DNA of 32,000 nt from Sinorhizobium meliloti (GCF_017876815.1 NZ_JAGIOS010000003.1:780001-812000); one strand, 5' to 3'. Shown: positions 6,795 through 21,315, counted from the first letter of the stretch. Notes: a model not told the origin generated them from the letters alone. Numbers and translations: made by a program.

Positions 6795-6808
6795 TTGACC
6801 GGAGTCAA
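6795..6808 (-). promoter_or_regulatory. Perfect FixK/FNR anaerobox TTGACCGGAGTCAA
   Basis: 10/10 to TTGA(T/C)-N4-(A/G)TCAA. On the minus strand TATCGT (TAnnnT) follows after 21 nt. No comparable -10 exists on the plus side. It would give a leader of about 235 nt to the CBS gene ATG (6524). Confidence 0.55.
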
Positions 6809-7085
6809 TATATCGACACTTGCTCCGGCGAATCGAGAAGCTCGTCCGGCGCTGCTTTCGTCGATATCGGCGCGTTGCAGGATGCTCCCCGACAAACTCG
6901 CCCAGCCTCTGCCACAGCAGAAGCTATGCGGACGCAACCCGCGCCTAAGCCAGTCCGCCGGGAGCGCGCCCGCTCCGCCTGGATTTGATGGAGATCAATG
7001 CGCAGAAGGCGGTGTTGGTGTATGTGCGATCAGAGACTGGGACCGCCCTTCGTTCAAGCCGAGGAGTAGACCGAATGCCTCAGCA

Positions 7086-7765: not shown

Positions 7766-9847
7766 ATGAATAGCGTACAACCCATTCGAATTGGTTTTCT
7801 GCTGCTGGCCGTCGCTCCAATCCTCTTTTGGATGCTGCTTGGAGTTTCCTGGGCACAGCAGGCTCCCGTCGGCGTGCCGCCCGAAAAGGCACAACAGTTC
7901 CTCGATCTGCTCTCGGATCCGGAGGTGAAGACATGGCTCGAGGGTAAGATCCCTTCGGCTGCCGCGGAGCCCCCTGCTGGGTCGCCCGTCGAGACGATAT
8001 CGAGCTGGGAGGCCGCCATCCGCGATCGCTTTAATGGGCTTATGGGCGCAGTTCCCCGCATACCAGAGGAGCTGGCAAGCGGCGCCGCTGTTGTCTCGCG
8101 CGACGTGAACTCGGGCAGGCCCGGGCTGGTGGTCAGCATATTTGCCGTTCTGATTGCCGTTGGCCTCGGCGCCGAGTGGCTGATCCCGAGGGTCTTCGCC
8201 CGGGCACGCAAATCCGGGGCAAACGAGAACGCCGGACAAGAGATCCTGTCCGAGATCGCTGCCTTGCTGACGTTTGCCTTGGCCAGCGTCGGTTCATTCC
8301 TGGCATTCGAATGGCCGCCCTTACTGCGTAAGATCATCCTTACGCTGCTTCTAGCTTTTATCGTGTTTCGGGTCGTCCGAGCGATCGGCAAGTTGCTGTT
8401 TGCCTTGAGCGGCGCCAGCGGCATTGCCGATCAGCCGCCGTCAGCTTTTGAAAGCGATGCGGCCCGTCGTTTCTGGCTTTCGCGGATCAGCATTATTGCC
8501 GGGTTTCTTCTATTCGGCTGGGCCATCGTCAGTCTCATGCCCGCTTTGAGCTTCTCCAATGAGGTGACCCGGCTTGCTGCCTTTCTGTTCGGGTTGGGCA
8601 TTCTGGTAACCGCAGTCGAGGTCGTCTGGCGGCGCCCCGACAAGCCGGCTCCGCTTGTCGTCAAGTCACTGCTTACCCTCTATCTAGTCGTGCTTTGGTC
8701 GGCTTGGGTAGCGGGATTGCTAGGACTGCTGTGGCTGGGCATCTATTCGCTGCTCTTACCGCCTCTGGTGCGCGGCGTTGGCGACGTGGCGCAGGCCTTA
8801 GCGACCAGACAGCGCACCGGCCCTCCCGGCATCGTACTGAGCGTGGTCATAGTCAGGGGTGCCAGGGCAGCGGTGATCGCCGCCGCGGTCGCATGGCTCG
8901 CCTACATCTGGCGCATCAGAGCTGCAGCCCTCGCCGGCAGCGAACCCGGCGCGATCGTGATACCGGGATTGCTCAACGGTATCATCGCCCTCTTGGTCGC
9001 CGACCTGCTTTGGCAGATGTCAAAGGCGTTAATCGCTTATCGGATGGGACTTGGGCCGAAGGACGGTTCCAACGTCGATGAACTCGCCCGCAGCGGCCGG
9101 TTACGGACGCTCTTGCCGATATTCCGCAACGTGCTCGCTGTCTTCATCGGTGCCGTTACCGTGCTGACGATCCTGTCCGGACTGGGCGTGCAGATTGCAC
9201 CGTTGATCGCCGGGGCGGGTATTTTCGGCGTCGCTATCGGATTCGGATCGCAGACGCTGGTCAAGGACGTCCTGAGCGGCGTTTTCTACATGCTCGACGA
9301 TGCCTTCCGTGTCGGTGAGTACATCCAGAGCGGCAGCTACAAGGGCACGGTCGAATCGTTCAGCCTGCGGTCGGTCAGGCTGCGGCATCACCGCGGCCCG
9401 ATCTTCACAGTGCCGTTCGGCGAGCTGGGGGCCGTTCAGAACATGAGCCGCGACTGGGTGATCGACAAGATGACTCTCAACGTCACTTACGATGCCGACG
9501 TAGACCTCGCACGGAAGCTCATCAAGAAGGTCGGCCAGGAGCTGGCTGCGGATCCGGAGTTCGCGGCCGACACGATTGAGCCCTTGAAGATGCAGGGCGT
9601 CGACAGCTTCGGCGACTTTGCGATCGTGCTCAGGATGAAGCTGATGACCAAACCGGGCGCGCAGTTCACTATAAAGCGACGAGCCTTCATGATGATCAAG
9701 AAGGCATTTGATGAGAACGGCATCAAGATCGCGGTTCCAACCGTTCATGTCTCGGGAGGAAGCGACAACGCCGCCGCCGCGCAGCAAGCGCTCAACATGA
9801 GCAAGGCCGCCGAACTGGCGGCGAACAAGGCACCTGTAGGCCTTTAA
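7766..9847 (+). CDS. Large MscS-family mechanosensitive channel with signal peptide and N-terminal multi-TM extension, 693 aa
   Basis: The C-terminal third carries the MscS core (GIFGVAIGFGSQTLVKDVLSGVFYMLDDAFRVGEYI..., beta-domain SVRLRHHRGPIFTVPFGEL). The N-terminus MNSVQPIRIGFLLLAVAPILFWMLLGVSWAQQ is signal-like. GGAG lies 7 nt upstream. Confidence 0.85.
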   Translation: MNSVQPIRIGFLLLAVAPILFWMLLGVSWAQQAPVGVPPEKAQQFLDLLSDPEVKTWLEGKIPSAAAEPPAGSPVETISSWEAAIRDRFNGLMGAVPRIPEELASGAAVVSRDVNSGRPGLVVSIFAVLIAVGLGAEWLIPRVFARARKSGANENAGQEILSEIAALLTFALASVGSFLAFEWPPLLRKIILTLLLAFIVFRVVRAIGKLLFALSGASGIADQPPSAFESDAARRFWLSRISIIAGFLLFGWAIVSLMPALSFSNEVTRLAAFLFGLGILVTAVEVVWRRPDKPAPLVVKSLLTLYLVVLWSAWVAGLLGLLWLGIYSLLLPPLVRGVGDVAQALATRQRTGPPGIVLSVVIVRGARAAVIAAAVAWLAYIWRIRAAALAGSEPGAIVIPGLLNGIIALLVADLLWQMSKALIAYRMGLGPKDGSNVDELARSGRLRTLLPIFRNVLAVFIGAVTVLTILSGLGVQIAPLIAGAGIFGVAIGFGSQTLVKDVLSGVFYMLDDAFRVGEYIQSGSYKGTVESFSLRSVRLRHHRGPIFTVPFGELGAVQNMSRDWVIDKMTLNVTYDADVDLARKLIKKVGQELAADPEFAADTIEPLKMQGVDSFGDFAIVLRMKLMTKPGAQFTIKRRAFMMIKKAFDENGIKIAVPTVHVSGGSDNAAAAQQALNMSKAAELAANKAPVGL

Positions 9848-9859
9848 CCTTAAACCATG

Positions 9860-9890
9860 ATGATTTTGGATTGAATCAATTCAAAATCAT
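9860..9890. repeat. 31-bp AT-rich palindrome ATGATTTTGGATTGA-A-TCAATTCAAAATCAT (14/15 arm match)
   Basis: Read directly. It starts 13 nt after the MscS stop codon. No U-tract follows on either strand. Confidence 0.7.
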
Positions 9891-13383: not shown

Positions 13384-13545
13384 TTATGGGGTGCCCGTAA
13401 CGCAGAGCGAATTGCCGAACGCGTCGAATGGTAGGATATCCGATGGCTGGCCGGCGAAGGCGTGGACCACGGACTGCAGGAAGGGCATGAAGGCGGCGAC
13501 CAGCGCCAGCGCCGGGCTCAATCCCGTCCGTTCTCTCGCCATCAT
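13384..13545 (-). CDS. Possible unannotated 53-aa ORF (MMARERTGLSPALALVAAFMPFLQSVVHAFAGQPSDILPFDAFGNSLCVTGTP)
   Basis: Below the ORF-track length cutoff. GGAG lies 5 nt upstream of the ATGATG. One hydrophobic helix. No family recognised. It could equally be a gene remnant. Confidence 0.2.
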   Translation of the reverse strand: MMARERTGLSPALALVAAFMPFLQSVVHAFAGQPSDILPFDAFGNSLCVTGTP

Positions 13546-13685
13546 CCATTCTCCATTCTGGCGCTGCGATTACAAATAGACGAGCCTCCGGAACCCACCA
13601 TTGTTCCAGATCAACAACCGTGGGTGTCGTAGAGATATCCGCCTTCGCCGCGGCCAATTGATAGGCGGCAAAGTGATTGCGGCTG

Positions 13686-13997
13686 TCATCCGTCAACTTG
13701 CTTGGGCACTCTGACCCCACGCATGACGCCAATCGCAGCTCCCACAGTCCCCCCGGCGACCACGCCCGCAGAACCGCCAGCAAGGACCGCAATCAGGCAA
13801 TTGAGGACGGCAGCCCCGAAAGCGGAATCCGACAGGAAAACGATACCGGCGACGAGTCCGACCAGAGCGCCGATCGCTCCAAGGGCAATTGCAAACAGGG
13901 TGACGGACTCCGACGGATCAATCTGCCGGTCGGGAACCTCTTTCTGTGTCGGATCTGGCCCCTGAGTGGCCCGCTGGCGTTCATCCGTGTTTGGCAT
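13686..13997 (-). CDS. Glycine-zipper-type small membrane protein, 103 aa (orf103)
   Basis: ATG 13995-13997 with GGAG 8 nt upstream, overlapping the fixS 3' end by 17 nt. Two Gly/Ala-rich helices (LFAIALGAIGALVGLVAGIVFL; VLAGGSAGVVAGGTVGAAIGVM). Confidence 0.5.
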   Translation of the reverse strand: MPNTDERQRATQGPDPTQKEVPDRQIDPSESVTLFAIALGAIGALVGLVAGIVFLSDSAFGAAVLNCLIAVLAGGSAGVVAGGTVGAAIGVMRGVRVPKQVDG

Positions 13998-14241
13998 TGG
14001 ATACTCCGGAGTAGAGCTTCGATTCACCGTCCTCTTTCGGGGAACGCTGGCGTCTGCTGGCAGTTCCGTCCCGGTCCGGGTCCGGCAACGGTCCCTCGTC
14101 CTCCTCATCGTCCAGCAGGATCCTCTCGGCCGCTCCGTCGAGATCATCGTACTGCCCGGAGCGCAGCGACCAGAAGAATGCCAGTAGTCCGACGAAGCCC
14201 ATCGCCAAGGCAACCGGGACGAGGAGAGCAAGATAATTCAT
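13981..14241 (-). CDS. fixS: cbb3 oxidase maturation protein FixS/CcoS with an extended acidic C-terminus, 86 aa
   Basis: MNYLALLVPVALAMGFVGLLAFFWSLRSGQYDDLDGAAERILLDD is the CcoS signature. ATGA overlap with the fixI stop (14238-14241). Confidence 0.8.
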   Translation of the reverse strand: MNYLALLVPVALAMGFVGLLAFFWSLRSGQYDDLDGAAERILLDDEEDEGPLPDPDRDGTASRRQRSPKEDGESKLYSGVSNAKHG

Positions 14242-16505
14242 ATCTTTACCGTGGCTGGTTTGGTCGCGCCGAAGGTGCGCGGCCCCTTTTTAACCTTTGC
14301 ACCTTGGCGCAGCGCGTTTCCAACGACGACGATCGAGGACAGCGACATGGCAAGCGCAGCAGCGAGCGGCGTGACCACTCCGCCGATCGCGAAGGGCACG
14401 CTGACGACGTTGTAGACGATTGCCATTGCGAAGTTCTGGCGGATCAGCACGTCGGCCCTCGCCGCGGTCTGGATGATGTCTCGGACAGCCAGCAGGCTCT
14501 GACCGAGAAAAACGAAGTCGGATGCGCTCCGTCCGACGTCCGTTGCCGACGAGGGGGCGATCGACACGTGCGCGGCCGCCAGCGCCGGCGCATCGTTCAG
14601 ACCGTCGCCGATCATCAGCACCTTGCGGCCTGTCGCCGCGAGTGCCCTGATGGCCTCGACCTTTTCACCCGGAAGCAGCTCAGCCGAAAACGCCTCGATG
14701 TCCAATTGCCCGGCGATGGACGAAACCGCGGCACTACGATCTCCAGAAAGGATGCGCACCGAAAGGCCGGCCGAGCGCAGCGTCTGGACAAGCTCGCGAG
14801 CACCGGGACGAACGGTTTCCTCGAACGCGAAAACCGCTATCGCTTCGGCGTCCTTCGACAGCACGGTGGTCGACGACGTTCCCAAGTCGACCTGCTTTGC
14901 AGTCGATGCCCAGGACGGGCGTCCGAGACGGTAGACCGCGTCCCCTGCCCGCCCCTCGATGCCGCAGCCATGAACCTCCTCGAGGCTGTCGAATTCCACA
15001 GGGGCCACGGGCCGTCGAGGGTCTGCCAAGGCGATGGCGACGGACGCGGGATGCCGTGAGACCCTCGCCATCGCGGCTGCCAGAGACAGGAGCCGGGGCT
15101 GAATGTCGCCCGCGTTGACGAGGCGCATCTCGCCGAGGGTCAGCGTCCCGGTCTTGTCGAAGAGTACGGTGTCGATTTCGTTCAACCGCTCGAATGCGGA
15201 TCCGTCGCGCGCCATGATGCCGCGTTCAAAGAGGCGCCTTACCGCAACTACCTGCACCATCGGAACGGCAAGTCCAAGGGCGCAGGGGCAGGTTATGACA
15301 AGTACGGCGATCGCAATGGTGACGGATTTGTGGAGGTCTCCGGTTCCAAAGAGCCATGCGACCATGGAAAGGAGGGCGACGCCATGCACGACTGGCGCAT
15401 ACAGGCTTGCAGCGCGATCCGCGATGCGACGGTAAGTGGAGCGCCCGCTCTCGGCAGCCTCCATCATGCGGGTCATCTCGGCCAGGAAGGAACCGTCGGC
15501 GGATGCGGTCGCCAAGAGGGTCAGCGGATTGGCGAGGTTCATCACGCCCGCCTGCAACGCGCTTCCCAGCGCGGCACGCCTCCACTCGCTCTCCCCTGAA
15601 ACGATCGAAGCATCAAGCTCCGAGGCGCCTTTGACGACAATGCCGTCGACCGGCGCGCGCTCGCCGGCGGCGACAAGCAGACGCATGCCCGGCTGGATCT
15701 CGGAAAGCGGGACGTAGTCAATCGCCTCGTCTGCCTGGACGACACTCGCGCCACGCGGCGAGAGCCTTGCAAGCGCTCCCACGGCGGAACGCGCCCGGCC
15801 CCGCATCAGATGGTCCAAAGTTCGGCCTGCCAGCAGTACGAACAGCAGGGACGTGCTCGCGTCGAAATAGGCAAAGGCCGCGTTGTGAAGGGTGTCGTAG
15901 ACGCTCAGGGCGAAAGCGAGGAGAACGCCGACGCTGATCGGAACGTCCATGTTGGTGCGACCATGCCGCAGCGCCGCCCAGGCCGAGCGGTAGAAGAACC
16001 TCCCGGAATAGACGATCGCCGGCAGAGCGAGCGCCGCCGAGACCAGGTGGAACGCATGGCGCGTCGCGGGATCGGCCCCGGACCAAACCGATACCGAGAG
16101 GATCATGATGTTCATCGCCGAGAAACCGGCGACCGCGAGCGCCTTCAAAAGGGAGGCAAGCACCGGGTCCTGTGTCTCCTCCTCGATGGAGGCCAGATGC
16201 GAAGCATAGCCGATCTTCGCAAGCGCAGCGGCGAAATCCGGACTCTCGTCGTCATTGCCCCGCCAGTTGATGGTGACCCGACGGGTAGACAGGTTCACGC
16301 GTGCAAGCTCGACGCCTGGGATTTTCCGGAGAGCGCCTTCGACGGCAGCAATGCAGGCGGCGCAATGCGCGTCGGGCAACGCCAATGCGATTTGGCGAAG
16401 GCCGTCGCCAAGGTCTCGGCTCGCGAGCCGGATCTCCTGGGGGGAGACGCTCGTCCGTGATGCCGCACCGGCGCTTGGGACGGCTATACCAGAGCAGCAG
16501 GACAT
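14238..16505 (-). CDS. fixI: Cu+-translocating P1B-type ATPase FixI/CcoI, 755 aa
   Basis: ORF 14238..16898 trimmed to ATG 16503-16505 (MSCCSGIAV...), 2 nt after the DUF2189 stop. HMA domain with CAAC, TM CPC motif (ITCPCALGLA), DKTGTLT phosphorylation site, GDGLNDAPAL hinge. Confidence 0.9.
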   Translation of the reverse strand: MSCCSGIAVPSAGAASRTSVSPQEIRLASRDLGDGLRQIALALPDAHCAACIAAVEGALRKIPGVELARVNLSTRRVTINWRGNDDESPDFAAALAKIGYASHLASIEEETQDPVLASLLKALAVAGFSAMNIMILSVSVWSGADPATRHAFHLVSAALALPAIVYSGRFFYRSAWAALRHGRTNMDVPISVGVLLAFALSVYDTLHNAAFAYFDASTSLLFVLLAGRTLDHLMRGRARSAVGALARLSPRGASVVQADEAIDYVPLSEIQPGMRLLVAAGERAPVDGIVVKGASELDASIVSGESEWRRAALGSALQAGVMNLANPLTLLATASADGSFLAEMTRMMEAAESGRSTYRRIADRAASLYAPVVHGVALLSMVAWLFGTGDLHKSVTIAIAVLVITCPCALGLAVPMVQVVAVRRLFERGIMARDGSAFERLNEIDTVLFDKTGTLTLGEMRLVNAGDIQPRLLSLAAAMARVSRHPASVAIALADPRRPVAPVEFDSLEEVHGCGIEGRAGDAVYRLGRPSWASTAKQVDLGTSSTTVLSKDAEAIAVFAFEETVRPGARELVQTLRSAGLSVRILSGDRSAAVSSIAGQLDIEAFSAELLPGEKVEAIRALAATGRKVLMIGDGLNDAPALAAAHVSIAPSSATDVGRSASDFVFLGQSLLAVRDIIQTAARADVLIRQNFAMAIVYNVVSVPFAIGGVVTPLAAALAMSLSSIVVVGNALRQGAKVKKGPRTFGATKPATVKI

Positions 16506-16507
16506 GG

Positions 16508-17314
16508 CTAGCGCAACGCTCTGTAGGCGTGCCAGGTGGCATGCCCGAGCAAGGGGAAGATCACAACAAGACCGATCATCGCCGTGGCTACGCTGACCAG
16601 GAACATCCCTAGCACGATCGCGCCCCAGACGAGCATCGGACGGAGGTTGTTCCAGACAAGCGCCACGCTGACGCCCATTGCCGTGAACGCATCGATGCGC
16701 TGGTCGAGCAGCATCGGTATGGAGAACACGCTGATAGCAAAGGAAAATCCGGCAAAAAGCGCGCCGATGAAAATGCCGACTGCAAGCATGGCCCAGCCGG
16801 TGGGCGTCGTTAGCAGCAGTTGCGTGACATGCCCTAGGCCGGGAAACGGCCGCACCCCGAAGAACAAGGCATAGATGAGCACGGCCGCGCGCATCCACAG
16901 CAGCATGAGCATGCAGAGCAGAAGCCCGGTAAAGAACACCTGGGCGCCGGCCACCGGCCTGACGCGCAGCATGCTCCCGAGACTGACCGGCTCGGATCGC
17001 TCGAGGCGCGAACTCTTCAAATAGAGCCCCGTCGCGAACAGCGGCGCGATGATCATAAAACCTGCAACTGCGGGGAACAGGAAATAGTCGCGTCCGGTGG
17101 CGAACAGGAGCCAGATGATCAGGAAGGAAACCACAAAGACGGCCACCCCGTAGCTCAGGCTGAGCATCGGATACGTGATCAGGTCACGCCAACCTTTCGC
17201 GAGCCACTCAAAGGGTGCCTGGGCCGGCAGATGGCGTTGCCACTTCGGATTCCAGGTCTCCTCTATGCCTGAGACCTCGCCTACCCACCGCTGTAACTTT
17301 CCAGTCCCTGACAT
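16508..17314 (-). CDS. DUF2189 polytopic membrane protein, 268 aa
   Basis: ATG 17312-17314 with GGAGAG 5 nt upstream (the GTG at 17326 is less likely). FEWLAKGWRDL...SLSYGVAVF...AGFMIIAPLFATGLYLKSSRLE matches my recollection of DUF2189. It lies between fixP/orf63 and fixI with gaps of 27 and 2 nt. Confidence 0.75.
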   Translation of the reverse strand: MSGTGKLQRWVGEVSGIEETWNPKWQRHLPAQAPFEWLAKGWRDLITYPMLSLSYGVAVFVVSFLIIWLLFATGRDYFLFPAVAGFMIIAPLFATGLYLKSSRLERSEPVSLGSMLRVRPVAGAQVFFTGLLLCMLMLLWMRAAVLIYALFFGVRPFPGLGHVTQLLLTTPTGWAMLAVGIFIGALFAGFSFAISVFSIPMLLDQRIDAFTAMGVSVALVWNNLRPMLVWGAIVLGMFLVSVATAMIGLVVIFPLLGHATWHAYRALR

Positions 17315-17341
17315 ATGTCTCTCCACGGGTGCACGATAACG

Positions 17342-17533
17342 TCAGCAGGATGATTTCGCGGCCCTGTACCGTCCCGGAGCCGATCCCGTTTCCTTCAGGT
17401 GAGCGACGCATCCGGGATCGCTGTCGATCGCGATGTAAAGCATGTGGGCGTTGGCACCGAGAAAGATGGCCGCGGCGACGAGGCCCCACCAGGCTAGGAG
17501 CGATCTGCTTCGTCTCGCGGCAGCTTTCGTCAT
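17342..17533 (-). CDS. Small single-pass membrane protein, 63 aa (orf63), translationally coupled to fixP
   Basis: Its ATG overlaps the fixP TGA (ATGA at 17530-17533). MTKAAARRSRSLLAWWGLVAAAIFLGANAHMLYIAI (positive N-terminus plus one TM), then DSDPGCVAHLKE...SSC. It is hidden in the track inside ORF 17342..17755. Confidence 0.5.
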   Translation of the reverse strand: MTKAAARRSRSLLAWWGLVAAAIFLGANAHMLYIAIDSDPGCVAHLKETGSAPGRYRAAKSSC

Positions 17534-18414
17534 CACGGTTTCTCCACGCCCAGAGAGTTGACGTAGAGCGCCAAAATCTTGATCTCCGCGGGTGTCAGCC
17601 GCTCGTCCCATGTCGGCATATGACCTTGGCGCCCGCCGTGGACGGATTCGATGATACCCTGCATCGTGCCGCCATAGATCCAATAGGCGTCGGTCAGGTT
17701 CGGAGCGCCGACCTCCCGACTGCCTCTCGCGTCCTCGCCGTGGCAGGCGGCGCAAGTGGTGAGGAACACTTCCCTGCCCGCCTCGATCCGGCCAATGTTC
17801 TCAGGCGTGGAGTATCCGGGATTGGTCAGCGAATAGACATAGGCGGCGACGTCGCGGACCTGATTGCGTTCGAGCATCTGGTCGCGTCCGAAAGAGGGCA
17901 TCTGCGCAACGCGGCTTTCGGGATGGCGCGTGTTGATGCCGACCCTGAGGGTCTGTGCGATATCCTCCGGTCCGCCGCCCCAAAGCCAATCGTCGTCGGT
18001 CAGATCCGGATAATTGCTCCGGCCCTTTCCGTCGACGCCGTGGCAGACGGCGCAGTTGTCGCCGAACAACTGATGGCCGGTGGAGCGGACAGTCTCCATC
18101 AACTGCTCGTCCGCCCTTATCTGCTCGTAGGAGAGCGTATCAATCCTCTTCTCCCAAACCGCCCTGGCTGCAGCCGCGGCGGCAAGCTTCTCTTCGACGA
18201 CGTTCCGCTCGTCGATTCCTAGCAGGCCCCTCGTATAGGTAGTGCCGAGCGGCCACGTCGGCAGCAGCACCCACCAGATCAGTGCGAAGACATGGGTGAC
18301 GACCAGGAAAAGCAGCACTCCTCGGGGAACCGGCGTGTCCAGTTCCTTGATGCCGTTCCACTCATGTCCCGTGGTCTTGCGGCCGCTGATCGGATCGACT
18401 TCCTCTACGTCCAT
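17533..18414 (-). CDS. fixP: cbb3-type cytochrome c oxidase subunit P (dihaem cytochrome c), 293 aa
   Basis: Two CxxCH motifs (CAVCHG, CAACHG), an N-terminal TM, and the conserved HEWNGIKELDTPVP start region. Confidence 0.92.
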   Translation of the reverse strand: MDVEEVDPISGRKTTGHEWNGIKELDTPVPRGVLLFLVVTHVFALIWWVLLPTWPLGTTYTRGLLGIDERNVVEEKLAAAAAARAVWEKRIDTLSYEQIRADEQLMETVRSTGHQLFGDNCAVCHGVDGKGRSNYPDLTDDDWLWGGGPEDIAQTLRVGINTRHPESRVAQMPSFGRDQMLERNQVRDVAAYVYSLTNPGYSTPENIGRIEAGREVFLTTCAACHGEDARGSREVGAPNLTDAYWIYGGTMQGIIESVHGGRQGHMPTWDERLTPAEIKILALYVNSLGVEKP

Positions 18415-18575
18415 GGCTGGTCGTCCTCATCGAGAATGTCCCTCTTGGCACGATCGAAACGCTCGCGGTTAGCGGGCCAGAACGCGTAGACGATCACGCA
18501 GATCGAGAACCCGATGAGGTAGAAGAGCCCCCAGGTCTTCGCCGCCTCCACCAATGTCTCGTGGGTCACGTCCAT
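18405..18575 (-). CDS. fixQ: cbb3-type oxidase subunit Q, 56 aa
   Basis: Not in the ORF track (too short). MDVTHETLVEAAKTWGLFYLIGFSICVIVYAFWPANRERFDRAKRDILDEDDQPWT. Single TM, correct position between fixO and fixP. Its stop overlaps the fixP start by 10 nt. Confidence 0.75.
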   Translation of the reverse strand: MDVTHETLVEAAKTWGLFYLIGFSICVIVYAFWPANRERFDRAKRDILDEDDQPWT

Positions 18576-18596
18576 GACGACGTTGTCCTTTCTCGC

Positions 18597-19349
18597 TCAA
18601 TCGCTGGGGTCGGGTACCTGTTCCGGCGCCGCGGTGTTCTGGTATGCCGCCTTGGTCAGCCGTCCGAGGACCTGCAGATAGGCGACGAGCGCATCCATCT
18701 CCGTGACCCGAGTTGCCACCCCGTCGAAGGCGCTGACCTGCGTCTCCTCCCCATAGCGTTCCGTCACGCCGGAAGACTGCTCGCTGTCGGGCACCGCCTG
18801 ACCGAAGGCGTCCCGCGCGGCGTTCTCGATCATCTCGTCGGTATAGGGCACTCCGACGCTTCGCTGCGCCTCCAGATGGGAGCCGAGATCGTCCAGCCGG
18901 AGCGGCGTCCGCGCCAGCCACGCATAGGCCGGCATGTTCGACTCCGGCACGACGTCCCGCGGATTGGTGAGATGGGCTACATGCCAGAAATCGGAATATT
19001 TGCCTCCTACCCTGGCGAGATCCGGTCCAGTCCGCTTCGATCCCCAGAGCATCGGGTGGTCATATTTGGATTCGACCGCCAGCGAGAAGGGCCCGTAGCG
19101 CTCCACCTCGTCCCGCAGCGTGCGGATCATCTGACTGTGGCACGCATAGCAGCCTTCACGGATGTAGATGTTGCGACCGGCGAGTTCTAGCGGCGTGTAG
19201 AGACGCATGTCCTCGACGTCCTCCACCGTCTCGTCGATGGTGAAGAGCGGAGCGATCTCCACGATGCCGCCGACGCTTGCCGCCAAGATGATCGCCAGCA
19301 CGAAGCCGATGGCGGTCCGCTCGAGCTTTCGATGAATAAGTTCGCGCAT
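18597..19349 (-). CDS. fixO: cbb3-type oxidase subunit O (monohaem cytochrome c), 250 aa
   Basis: ORF trimmed to ATG 19347-19349 (MRELIHRKLERT...), 4 nt after the fixN stop. CYACHSQ haem site. Confidence 0.92.
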   Translation of the reverse strand: MRELIHRKLERTAIGFVLAIILAASVGGIVEIAPLFTIDETVEDVEDMRLYTPLELAGRNIYIREGCYACHSQMIRTLRDEVERYGPFSLAVESKYDHPMLWGSKRTGPDLARVGGKYSDFWHVAHLTNPRDVVPESNMPAYAWLARTPLRLDDLGSHLEAQRSVGVPYTDEMIENAARDAFGQAVPDSEQSSGVTERYGEETQVSAFDGVATRVTEMDALVAYLQVLGRLTKAAYQNTAAPEQVPDPSD

Positions 19350-19353
19350 GTTC

Positions 19354-21009
19354 CTACTCCGCCGGTCCCGATGCCGCGCCTTCTGGCAACGGTGCGGCGA
19401 CCGGAACATCGTCGTGCCGTTCAGCCAGAGCTGGGACGCCGCGAACGGTCATCCAGATGTTGTAGGTGGCAACGACAGCTCCGATTAGGAACAGCAGGCC
19501 GCCGAAGGCACGGGCGATATAGTAGGGGTACATCGCCACGAGGGAATCCACGAATGAATAGGCGAGCGTCCCCTCCCCCGTATAGGTCCGCCACATCAGG
19601 CCCTGGATGATGCCCGAGTTCCACATTGCGAAGACGTAGATTACGGTGCCGGCGAAGGCGAGCCAGAAATGGACCTCGACGAGGGCTGCCGAATACATCC
19701 TCTCGCGCTTCCAGATCGCTGGCACGAGCGTGTAGAGCGAGCCGTAGGTGATCAACGCCACCCATCCCAGAGCCCCCGCATGGACATGGCCGACTGTCCA
19801 GTCGGTATAGTGCGACAGCGAGTTCACGGGGCGGACCGCGAGGAACGATCCCTCGAAGGTCGAGAGCCCGTAGAAGAAGGCGGCCATCATGATGAAACGC
19901 AGCGTCGCGTCGTCGCGAACCTTGTGCCAGGCCCCGTTCAGCGTCAGCAGGGCGTTGCCGGCCGATGCCCATGAGGGAACCAGCAGCATCACCGAGAACG
20001 TCATTCCGAGGTTCTGTACCCAGTGCGGCAGGGCCGTGTAGTGAAGGTGGTGGGAGCCGGCCCACATGTAGAAGAAGGTTATGCCCCAAAAGCTGAGGAT
20101 CGACAGCCGGTAGGAAAAGATGGGCCGCTCGGCTCGTTTCGGCAGGTAGTAGTAGAGCATCGCCAGGAAGCCTGCCGTCAGGAAGAAGGCGACCGCATTG
20201 TGCCCGTACCACCACTGCACCATCGAGTCCTGCACGCCCGCCCAGATCGTGTAGCTCTTGGCATGGCCGAGCGAGACCGGAACTGCCAGGTTGTTGATGA
20301 TGTGCAGGATCGCCACGACCACGATGAAGGCCATGTAGTACCAGTTGGCGACGTAGATGTGCGGCTCCCTGCGGCGCGCCAGCGTTCGGATGTAGAGGAC
20401 GAAATAGGTGACCCAGACGATGACGAGCCAGAAGTCGGCATACCATTCCGCCTCGGCATATTCCTTCGATTGCGTCACACCCATGAAATAGCCGGTCACT
20501 GCCAGGATGCAGAAGAGGTTGTAGCCGAACAGCACGAACCACGGACTGAGTTGATCTGCCAGCCGGGCGCGCGAGGTCCTCTGAACAACATGGAACGACG
20601 TTGCAATCAGGGCGTTGCCGCCGAACCCGAAAATGACCCCGGTTGTATGAGCGGGTCTGATCCGTCCGAAGCTCGCCCAGGCCGTGTCGAAATTGAGGCT
20701 CGGCCAAGCAAGCTGCGCCGCCGCCCAGACGCCGATGAACATGCCGAAGATCGCCCAGAACAGTGTGAACCAGACGCCGACCTTGATGGGATCGTCGTAG
20801 TAGCGCGAGATGCGCGACGGGTCCGGGGGAGGCCCAAACGAGCTGGACATGATGAGGTACAGCAATGCAAGGCTATAAAGGAGGACAACCGCTCCGTGTA
20901 CTCCGAGCGGGTCGAACCGGCCGGCCGCCGCCATGGCAATACCGACAATAGCCAGGACGAGCAGTATTGCCGCGGCCAGGTCCCGTTCACGCCTCGTCAA
21001 CTGTCCCAT
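19354..21009 (-). CDS. fixN: cbb3-type cytochrome c oxidase catalytic subunit N, 551 aa
   Basis: Full ORF, 12 or more TM helices, His ligands in WWYGHNAV and HHLHYT contexts. GAGGGAG lies 8 nt upstream of the ATG. Confidence 0.95.
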   Translation of the reverse strand: MGQLTRRERDLAAAILLVLAIVGIAMAAAGRFDPLGVHGAVVLLYSLALLYLIMSSSFGPPPDPSRISRYYDDPIKVGVWFTLFWAIFGMFIGVWAAAQLAWPSLNFDTAWASFGRIRPAHTTGVIFGFGGNALIATSFHVVQRTSRARLADQLSPWFVLFGYNLFCILAVTGYFMGVTQSKEYAEAEWYADFWLVIVWVTYFVLYIRTLARRREPHIYVANWYYMAFIVVVAILHIINNLAVPVSLGHAKSYTIWAGVQDSMVQWWYGHNAVAFFLTAGFLAMLYYYLPKRAERPIFSYRLSILSFWGITFFYMWAGSHHLHYTALPHWVQNLGMTFSVMLLVPSWASAGNALLTLNGAWHKVRDDATLRFIMMAAFFYGLSTFEGSFLAVRPVNSLSHYTDWTVGHVHAGALGWVALITYGSLYTLVPAIWKRERMYSAALVEVHFWLAFAGTVIYVFAMWNSGIIQGLMWRTYTGEGTLAYSFVDSLVAMYPYYIARAFGGLLFLIGAVVATYNIWMTVRGVPALAERHDDVPVAAPLPEGAASGPAE

Positions 21010-21315
21010 GAAGTTGCTCCCTCGTCATGAACGGCCCCTGACAACGATCATCTATTTCCCGAGGGAACAAATCAAGGCTTCAGCCGATCTTTTGCCGATA
21101 CGCACCTAGACTTGTGGTTCGGTGCTCCGGGGCACGGCACATGGTTCCCCCCATCCGCGCGTGACGTGGTTAGGAGATCAGCCAACCGCAGTCTTCTGGG
21201 ACGGGACTCACCGAAAGATGTGACTCCGTGGCGAAGCGCCGAAGAGGCGCGTGAGAGGGCTTCCGGGGCGAGGCCAAGTTTCGCCCGCAATTGGCTGAAC
21301 CGTGCCGGCATGTCT

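Follow-up and report, generated by a model that had tools for sequence, protein, structure and literature searches.

A variant cbb3 oxidase operon of Sinorhizobium meliloti pSymA with a putative minimal FixH and a cco-associated DUF2189 membrane protein

Introduction

Micro-oxic respiration in symbionts and pathogens draws on the cbb3 oxidases, and the pathway of their assembly, with the participation of CcoG, CcoH, CcoI, CcoS and copper chaperones, is incompletely described, notably as to the mechanisms of CcoS and CcoH. The canonical clusters, such as those of Bradyrhizobium, Rhodobacter capsulatus and the fixNOQP1 copy of Sinorhizobium meliloti, have the layout ccoNOQP-ccoGHIS. Here we analyse a cluster at positions 13686-21009 on the minus strand of a 32,000-nucleotide stretch of S. 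meliloti DNA (NZ_JAGIOS010000003.1:780001-812000 of GCF_017876815.1; hereafter the window, from whose first letter its positions are counted). It shares with the canonical clusters the same four structural genes, CcoI and CcoS, in the same order and on a single strand. Unlike them, it is without CcoG; its CcoH appears to be down to 63 residues with a new Cys2His tail; a DUF2189 membrane protein is encoded between this putative mini-CcoH (orf63) and CcoI; and most copies of the variant are without a FixK/FNR box.

Two lines of earlier work bear on such a remodelling. The CcoH of R. capsulatus, in the account of Pawlik 2010 given by PMC8267372, binds CcoP/CcoN via its transmembrane domain, is essential for assembly and remains part of the active enzyme; in the cryo-electron microscopy structure of the R. 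capsulatus supercomplex (PMC7876108), a helix assigned to CcoH is next to transmembrane helix 9 of CcoN. CcoG is dispensable in Campylobacter jejuni (PMC8267372), so that its loss should be tolerable in principle. The nearest precedent for lineage-specific genes in the slot after ccoP is also from C. jejuni: ccoX/ccoY/ccoZ (cj1486c-cj1484c) lie between ccoP and ccoH, and their deletion has shown that they are either essential to cbb3 activity or important for it (PMC8267372). Unlike orf63 and the DUF2189 protein, these encode members of unrelated families (DUF4006, a 33-residue peptide and DUF5130/TPM), and a full-length CcoH is kept beside them.

The comparison across genomes reported below would tie two unstudied gene families, orf63 and DUF2189, to cbb3 assembly. 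The reading to which we lean is that of a self-contained variant cbb3 operon (fixNOQP3, mini-fixH, DUF2189, fixI2, fixS2), which has probably spread horizontally as a unit among Alphaproteobacteria and in which orf63 and DUF2189 would have roles as cbb3 partners.

A third fixNOQP copy on pSymA

Over its 7.3 kb the segment matches pSymA of the S. meliloti strains RU11/001 and SM11 with 100% identity, and that of many further strains with 97-99.9%. The locus is fixNOQP3-fixI2-fixS2, the third fixNOQP copy on S. meliloti pSymA, in agreement with the arrangement that the initial annotation of the window had named. Neither the locus nor its genes (fixNOQP3, fixI2 and fixS2) are new, and this copy counts among the variable 'microaerophilic' accessory genes of S. 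meliloti (PMC3164228).

Open reading frame (ORF) listing together with Pfam and NCBIfam searches gives nine co-directional minus-strand genes, and the Prokaryotic Genome Annotation Pipeline (PGAP) makes the identical nine calls in S. meliloti strain ml28 (CP140933.1). The initial annotation had the strand and the coordinates right and gave the count as ten, while listing eight junctions. Seven of the nine are known genes, all of them above curated cut-offs and in agreement with PGAP. The structural set opens with ccoN/fixN3 (19354-21009), encoding the 551-residue catalytic subunit I (PF00115, E 5.7e-106; TIGR00780, the ccoN equivalog, 630.8 bits against a cut-off of 583; ccoN in PGAP). It is followed by ccoO/fixO3 (18597-19349) for the 250-residue mono-haem subunit II (PF02433, E 1.4e-89; TIGR00781, 309.1 bits against 200.65); ccoQ/fixQ3 (18405-18575; 56 residues; PF05545, E 4.6e-17, 62.1 bits against 29); and ccoP/fixP3 (17533-18414) for the 293-residue di-haem subunit III (TIGR00782, 284.7 bits against 179.95; FixP_N and two cytochrome c domains). 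With CcoN, CcoO and CcoP beyond their trusted cut-offs, CcoQ there and the four genes contiguous, the cluster belongs to the cbb3 oxidases. Next come the two genes of interest: orf63 (17342-17533; 63 residues), a putative truncated FixH/CcoH by profile-profile alignment with hhalign and a weak match to the N-terminal part of Pfam FixH, and the DUF2189 gene (16508-17314), whose 268-residue membrane protein matches the full 126-position PF09955 profile (E 6.9e-35; 120.4 bits against 26.2). The operon is completed by fixI2/ccoI (14238-16505), for a P1B-type Cu(I)-ATPase of 755 residues (TIGR01511, 502 bits against 397; HMA, E 3.1e-10, E1-E2_ATPase and Hydrolase domains); fixS2/ccoS (13981-14241; 86 residues with a PF03597/TIGR00847 core; TIGR00847, 87.6 bits against 28.35); and orf103 (13686-13997), which has a Gly-rich hydrophobic C-terminal half and is without family match in Pfam and NCBIfam.

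Read on the sequence, the genes are closely packed throughout: gaps of 4 nucleotides between ccoN and ccoO, 21 between ccoO and ccoQ, 27 between orf63 and the DUF2189 gene and 2 between the latter and fixI2; overlaps of 10 nucleotides for ccoQ/ccoP, of ATGA for fixI2/fixS2 and of 17 nucleotides for fixS2/orf103. Seven of the eight junctions listed by the initial annotation are exact. The eighth, fixP/orf63, had been given as ATGA and reads GTGATG: with the ATG start chosen by PGAP the stop of ccoP and the start of orf63 overlap by 1 nucleotide (TGATG), and the overlap comes to 4 nucleotides only if the upstream GTG serves as the start.

Searches of the 32 kb window by tblastn gave no match for FixG with one FixG query (E >8) and nothing significant for FixH with three FixH queries from related loci (E >=0.2). 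CcoG/FixG, a protein of about 500 residues with two [4Fe-4S] Cys motifs and a FixG_C domain, is thus absent from the window by this search. Hence the earlier statement that nothing in the window resembles FixG or FixH stands for FixG and for full-length FixH; it fails for orf63, which appears to be remotely homologous to FixH in the latter's N-terminal transmembrane part. A single fixG lies on pSymA, at 477018-478574 of NZ_CP021217.1, about 390 kb from the present cluster (866690-874013).

DUF2189 and cco genes across genomes

Homologues of the DUF2189 protein fall into 4591 clusters at 90% identity; at 50% there are 2494 representatives. We compared 80 loci of the closest homologues, one genome per species, with DUF2189 proteins 35-95% identical to that of the window and 10 kb of flank on either side, and sorted them by tblastn with the window proteins, FixG and FixH. 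In 65 of these 80 species-level genomes there are cco genes within 10 kb of the DUF2189 homologue. The class A loci (31) have ccoNOQP, the small ORF, DUF2189 and, usually, ccoI and ccoS, with DUF2189 proteins 54-95% identical to ours; in none of the 31 did tblastn detect FixG or FixH within 10 kb. Class B (25 loci) has a full ccoNOQP-ccoG-ccoH-ccoI-ccoS cluster with a more distant DUF2189 gene (35-44% identical) flanking it. Nine further loci are partial or hybrid, with cco genes in other layouts, and 15 are unlinked, having no cco gene within 10 kb; among the neighbours of these last, as seen in crude ORF calls, there is no common alternative partner. Gene calls annotated with Pfam confirm class A in Microvirga, Aquibium, Sphingobium and Constrictibacter, and class B in Rhodomicrobium and one metagenome-assembled genome (MAG). 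The hosts of class A are Hyphomicrobiales, Sphingomonadales, a Paracoccaceae MAG, Constrictibacter and a Granulosicoccus MAG.

Both orf63 and DUF2189 are thus conserved beside cco genes in other genomes; the initial annotation had named a lack of such conservation as the outcome that would speak against it, and this is not what is found. Its placing of DUF2189 where fixG should be fares worse: 25 of the 80 genomes pair DUF2189 with a complete ccoNOQP-ccoGHIS. Standing beside both FixG and FixH in class B, DUF2189 would be a partner of cbb3 clusters generally and replaces neither of the two. The class B gene is usually convergent with, and at most 300 bp from, ccoS; at other loci it lies 210-400 bp upstream of ccoN, divergent or co-directional, and at two it is co-directional after ccoS. 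Linkage between DUF2189 and cco genes hence occurs in at least four arrangements: within the operon, convergent after ccoS, divergent from ccoN, and co-directional before ccoN or after ccoS.

This distribution bears on whether DUF2189 might be an additional stoichiometric subunit, either of the oxidase or of a supercomplex, a stabiliser like CcoM or CcoQ, with orf63 likewise having a structural role only. Class A does place both genes directly behind the structural genes and ahead of those for assembly; CcoH itself is retained in the mature enzyme according to PMC7876108 and PMC8267372, and lineage-specific small subunits are on record, such as CcoM (PMC4742706) and CcoX/Y/Z of C. jejuni. We nevertheless regard this as unlikely: the DUF2189 gene of class B usually forms a transcription unit of its own next to ccoS, often a convergent one, and not next to the structural genes, which better fits an accessory role, and a search of PDB sequences with the DUF2189 profile matched no purified or solved cbb3 oxidase, its matches being at chance level throughout.

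The divergence of DUF2189 tracks that of FixN, FixO, FixP and FixI (rho 0.83-0.88). As the genes of the module diverge in step, the operon behaves as one horizontally mobile module. Genes for IS66-family and rve-type transposases are found directly downstream of the operon in Sphingobium and Constrictibacter (L085 12711-15129; L086 13086-14197 in the locus set), which is consistent with horizontal spread of the module.

orf63, a putative minimal FixH/CcoH

In class A loci the slot between ccoP and DUF2189 holds 27 distinct orf63 orthologues of 53-72 residues, and a profile search extends the family to more than 4000 protein clusters, every one named 'hypothetical' and none with a Pfam domain. 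Its members share a basic N-terminus, one transmembrane helix, a GANAH(L/M)xY(V/I)A motif and a tail of about 25 residues; the family motif reads GANAHLVYVA-x-x-SQP-x-CV-x-HLK and the proteins end in (Y/F)RAAKSAC. An alignment of 53 sequences at 47-60% identity has Cys42, His45 and the C-terminal Cys63 invariant. It is most improbable that orf63 and DUF2189 are passengers without a role in the oxidase, orf63 being perhaps a spurious ORF. Such a reading, which we disfavour, could draw on their annotation as 'hypothetical' or DUF, with no curated family function; against it stand the invariance of orf63 residues over more than 50 sequences so far diverged, the constant position of orf63 between ccoP and DUF2189, and the survival of DUF2189-cco synteny through several rearrangements.

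The best Pfam match of orf63 is FixH (PF05751), below threshold (11.8 bits against 23, E 0.24) and covering only positions 12-39 of the 150 in the profile; the top, non-significant tblastn match of FixH in the window likewise falls inside orf63. When the 27 orf63 sequences were aligned by hhalign with the FixH proteins of class B, residues 14-44 of orf63 matched 27-58 of FixH (Prob 88.9%, E 2.4e-6), with pairing of the helix and of an A-x-(S/T)-x-x-G juxtamembrane motif. All controls, comprising a reversed FixH, 20 column-shuffled FixH alignments, the N-terminal helices of FixQ, FixS, FixP and FixO, and DUF2189, stayed at or below 5.6% probability. Homology of the N-terminal helix and juxtamembrane segment of orf63 to FixH/CcoH thus has moderate rather than conclusive support. 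Like FixH/CcoH, orf63 has an N-terminal basic stretch, a single transmembrane helix, an (A/V)N(G/A)xxxYxA-x-(S/T) juxtamembrane motif and a slot right after the structural genes. Unlike FixH/CcoH, it is without the periplasmic domain of about 120 residues, its 63 residues standing against 156-186 in the extracted FixH proteins, and the invariant Cys-x-x-His and C-terminal Cys set it apart from the FixH sequences compared. By these comparisons orf63 is apparently a truncated FixH/CcoH in which a Cys/His tail of about 25 residues has replaced the periplasmic domain.

Membrane-anchored periplasmic proteins of the Sco/SenC type bind copper by two Cys and one His. The orf63 tail has this same ligand set and may likewise bind copper; unlike Sco/SenC it is without a thioredoxin fold, and its spacing is CxxH...C as against CxxxC...H. 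The tail yields no Pfam or PDB match, the orf63 profile matches nothing among PDB sequences, and the AlphaFold2 (AF2) model gives a confident helix at 2-38 followed by a tail of predicted disorder at low confidence (pLDDT, the per-residue confidence score, of 50-58). Two hybrid loci fit the same trend of reduction: that of Tateyamaria sp. (L060 10001-16830) has DUF2189-ccoNOQP, a 56-residue Cys-less mini-FixH and ccoI-ccoS with no FixG, and another (L035) has kept a full-length FixH while FixG is missing.

The initial annotation had orf63 and DUF2189 replacing fixH and fixG, which amounts to non-homologous substitutes that would make this oxidase copy independent of FixGH. Both genes do occupy the slot between ccoP and ccoI and are tightly coupled to either neighbour; FixG and FixH were not found within 10 kb in 31 of 31 class A genomes; and a loss or substitution of CcoG is plausible given that it is non-essential in C. 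jejuni (PMC8267372). We hold this account to be improbable all the same. The replacement of fixH by an unrelated protein is contradicted by the hhalign result and its controls, which make orf63 itself a probable FixH homologue; DUF2189 stands alongside FixG and FixH in the 25 canonical clusters; and fixG is present on pSymA some 390 kb away. Further, an alignment of 56 diverse DUF2189 members has no conserved Cys, no iron-sulfur or Met-rich motif and no other redox motif. For want of a conserved Cys or iron-sulfur motif, DUF2189 cannot be an analogue of the cupric reductase.

The DUF2189 protein

The AF2 model of the DUF2189 protein is of high confidence (pLDDT 90.6; predicted template-modelling score, pTM, 0.86). 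It has six transmembrane helices with both termini inside, as judged from Lys and Arg counts across the alignment, and most positions with at least 80% conservation face the cytoplasm. Among them are W37, L38, G41 and D44 in an N-terminal amphipathic helix; G96, Y98, S101 and R102 after the second transmembrane helix; A212, S216 and N223 in loop 4; and, where the sixth transmembrane helix ends, W261, H262 and Y264. Foldseek against the PDB returned nothing with E <1 and no probability above 0.66; the nearest folds are the CysZ sulfate permeases, a weak and non-significant likeness at TM-scores of 0.45-0.54, and PNS1 of the CTL family, all with E >1. A weak NCBIfam match to the BPSS1780 family (E 8.6e-6) is below cutoff and allows no transfer of function.

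These fold neighbours are one argument for taking DUF2189 as a CysZ-like transporter of a small solute or ion that would matter in micro-oxic or denitrifying growth, in which case it would be linked to cco genes by co-regulation and not by a direct part in the oxidase; that class A operons are often beside denitrification or nitric oxide (NO)-stress genes (see below), and that 15 of the 80 homologues are not linked to cco genes, would agree with it. The structural matches themselves fall short, with every Foldseek E above 1 and probabilities of 0.66 or less; the conserved residues are on one membrane face and not along a path across it; and DUF2189 is translationally coupled inside an oxidase operon. 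Such a transporter is in our judgement very unlikely.

Two database entries call for a remark. A metagenomic protein of 518 residues (P0130) has DUF2189 fused to an HMA domain resembling the N-terminus of CcoI; whether a rare fusion in nature or an artefact of gene calling that merged it with ccoI, it is a single case and is given little weight. If real, it would put the C-terminus of DUF2189 in the cytoplasm next to CcoI. In the UniRef entry for the P0072 cluster (GEO86481.1) a DUF2189 protein goes by the name 'Cytochrome c oxidase subunit I', which is almost certainly mistaken and taken from its neighbour.

Proposed mechanism of the variant operon

The self-contained variant operon, as we see it, has the ordinary structural genes ccoNOQP, and its biogenesis half would be the part that was remodelled. 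CcoG, the cupric reductase, would have been lost from it, and FixH/CcoH would have been cut to its transmembrane helix, with the addition of a short periplasmic Cys-x-x-His...Cys tail. Because orf63 appears to keep the docking helix of CcoH, it should still dock beside CcoN/CcoP, and it would be inserted there as CcoH is. Its Cys2His tail may then bind Cu(I) exported by FixI2 and hand it over to CuB; alternatively, it may form a stabilising disulfide cap. The DUF2189 protein would be an accessory factor dedicated to cbb3 oxidases, acting on the cytoplasmic side with CcoS and CcoI in the insertion of cofactors into CcoN or its maturation. A part in the cytoplasm-side maturation of CcoN is suggested because the conserved patch of DUF2189 is cytoplasmic and ccoS is its most frequent neighbour.

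A bolder version can be put forward tentatively, though we think it rather unlikely: DUF2189 would be a widespread and hitherto unrecognised alphaproteobacterial factor of cbb3 biogenesis, working with CcoS and CcoI at the cytoplasmic face, while the mini-FixH would be a tethered Cys2His copper relay on CcoN, so that CuB is metallated without CcoG and perhaps without SenC/PccA. If so, the variant operon would be a minimal, portable assembly line for cbb3 oxidases.

Several points weigh against the reading that we favour. The sampling took in the closest 80 species from a DUF2189 family of about 2500 clusters at 50% identity, and for 15 of these 80 homologues the 10 kb flanks contain no cco gene. 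Nor are the counts of synteny independent in phylogenetic terms, class A with its 31 operons being essentially one clade. The hhalign match of orf63 extends over 31 columns that include a transmembrane helix, and a probability of 88.9% is not decisive; its tail is modelled with low confidence, and the periplasmic Cys pair may be a mere disulfide. As DUF2189 has no conserved Cys- or Met-rich motif, a direct role with Cu(I) is unlikely for it, and the exact step assigned to it is a guess. With fixGHIS, including a canonical fixG, elsewhere on pSymA, the operon of S. meliloti may depend on FixG and FixH in trans. Finally, the searchable literature yielded no experimental datum on orf63 or DUF2189 from any organism. 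Nothing was found there on the orf63 family or on DUF2189 under PF09955, COG5473 or IPR018692, which bears out the earlier remark that the latter has no assigned function.

The two families are of interest in different ways. orf63 would be a natural 'minimal CcoH', which suggests the part of CcoH that may suffice and adds a candidate metal site; DUF2189, a polytopic protein, has remained near cco genes across several rearrangements of the genomes. Both can be tested in S. meliloti, with its easy genetics and an existing fixI2 phenotype as a benchmark. Should the proposed roles be true, DUF2189 would gain a function and thousands of genomes a better annotation; should they be false, the locus is an ordinary, already catalogued third copy of fixNOQP.

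fixI2, fixS2 and orf103

The FixI2 translation has the CAAC of the HMA domain and a CPC motif, and its gene stands with ccoS beside cco genes, as is characteristic of CcoI/FixI. FixI2 falls in the FixI clade (PMC5552934), and is reported there to have been studied genetically by Patel et al. 2014 and to serve a constitutive oxidase. In FixS2 the CcoS core comprises residues 1-48, corresponding to a ccoS model of about 50 positions, and is followed by an acidic C-terminal extension of 38 residues; it is the end of the region coding for this tail that overlaps orf103 by its last 17 nucleotides.

The variant operons are not uniform in these genes. Those of Aquibium (L004), Stappia (L018) and Nitratireductor (L023) have no ccoI detected by tblastn; in Aquibium and Nitratireductor ccoS comes directly after DUF2189, and in the flank of the Stappia locus tblastn found neither ccoI nor ccoS. 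In a Devosia MAG (L022 95-7090) the variant operon is rearranged: ccoI lies upstream of ccoN, while ccoS follows DUF2189 and is encoded on the opposite strand.

Among the 80 loci orf103 was seen by tblastn in L005-L008 only, that is, in three Sinorhizobium/Ensifer genomes and one Rhizobiales isolate. We reject it as a member of the module on account of its detection in just these four related genomes; it is, to judge from this distribution, a lineage-restricted add-on outside the conserved module, contrary to its inclusion in the cluster by the initial annotation.

Upstream and downstream elements and neighbouring genes

Reading of the sequence upstream of ccoN reveals an element of the form TTGAT-N10-GGGAAATAGATG on the minus strand (21049-21075) that is shared among the Sinorhizobium copies, and whose k-mers GGGAAATAG/GAAATAGAT are common to 4 loci. 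It may, tentatively, be a candidate promoter; a scan for the sigma-70 consensus found no promoters, and no motif common to all class A upstream regions was found beyond this Sinorhizobium-specific element. The region upstream of ccoN in the window has no FixK/FNR palindrome (TTGA-N6-TCAA). Allowing at most one mismatch, FixK boxes precede ccoN in 4 of 34 class A operons and are missing in 30. With no box in the window and boxes at only 4 of the 34 operons, we do not propose FixK/FNR control of the variant operon. The fact that class A is mostly without FixK boxes, taken together with the reported service of FixI2 to a constitutive oxidase, suggests that the oxidase is made outside the FixK micro-oxic programme, which in turn suggests that it needs helpers of its own.

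About half of the canonical ccoNOQP-GHIS clusters with flanking DUF2189 have FixK boxes (at most one mismatch) upstream. Elsewhere in the window there are perfect TTGA-N6-TCAA palindromes at 6795-6808, 6985-6998 and 9871-9884, three as against 0.35 expected by chance, and they flank a gene for a mechanosensitive channel (about 7766-9847). The FixK targets in the window may hence be neighbouring genes rather than the oxidase operon.

On the downstream side a terminator-like hairpin on the minus strand (13579-13599), about 87 nucleotides beyond orf103, is tentatively a possible end of the operon; terminator-like sites in the region number 10 as against 6.4 +/- 2.8 expected, which is chance level. 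This hairpin separates the operon from a 53-residue ORF (13384-13545, minus strand), 143 nucleotides downstream of orf103, that PGAP calls hypothetical in ml28.

In other genomes the variant operons are often found beside genes of denitrification or NO stress (L002 8083-15233; L004 12116-18949; L085 156-2681), such neighbours being those for pseudoazurin, Crp/FNR regulators, NnrU, nor, napEFDABC, an Rrf2 regulator and flavohaemoglobin. The variant oxidase may be one that is used in denitrification or under NO stress.

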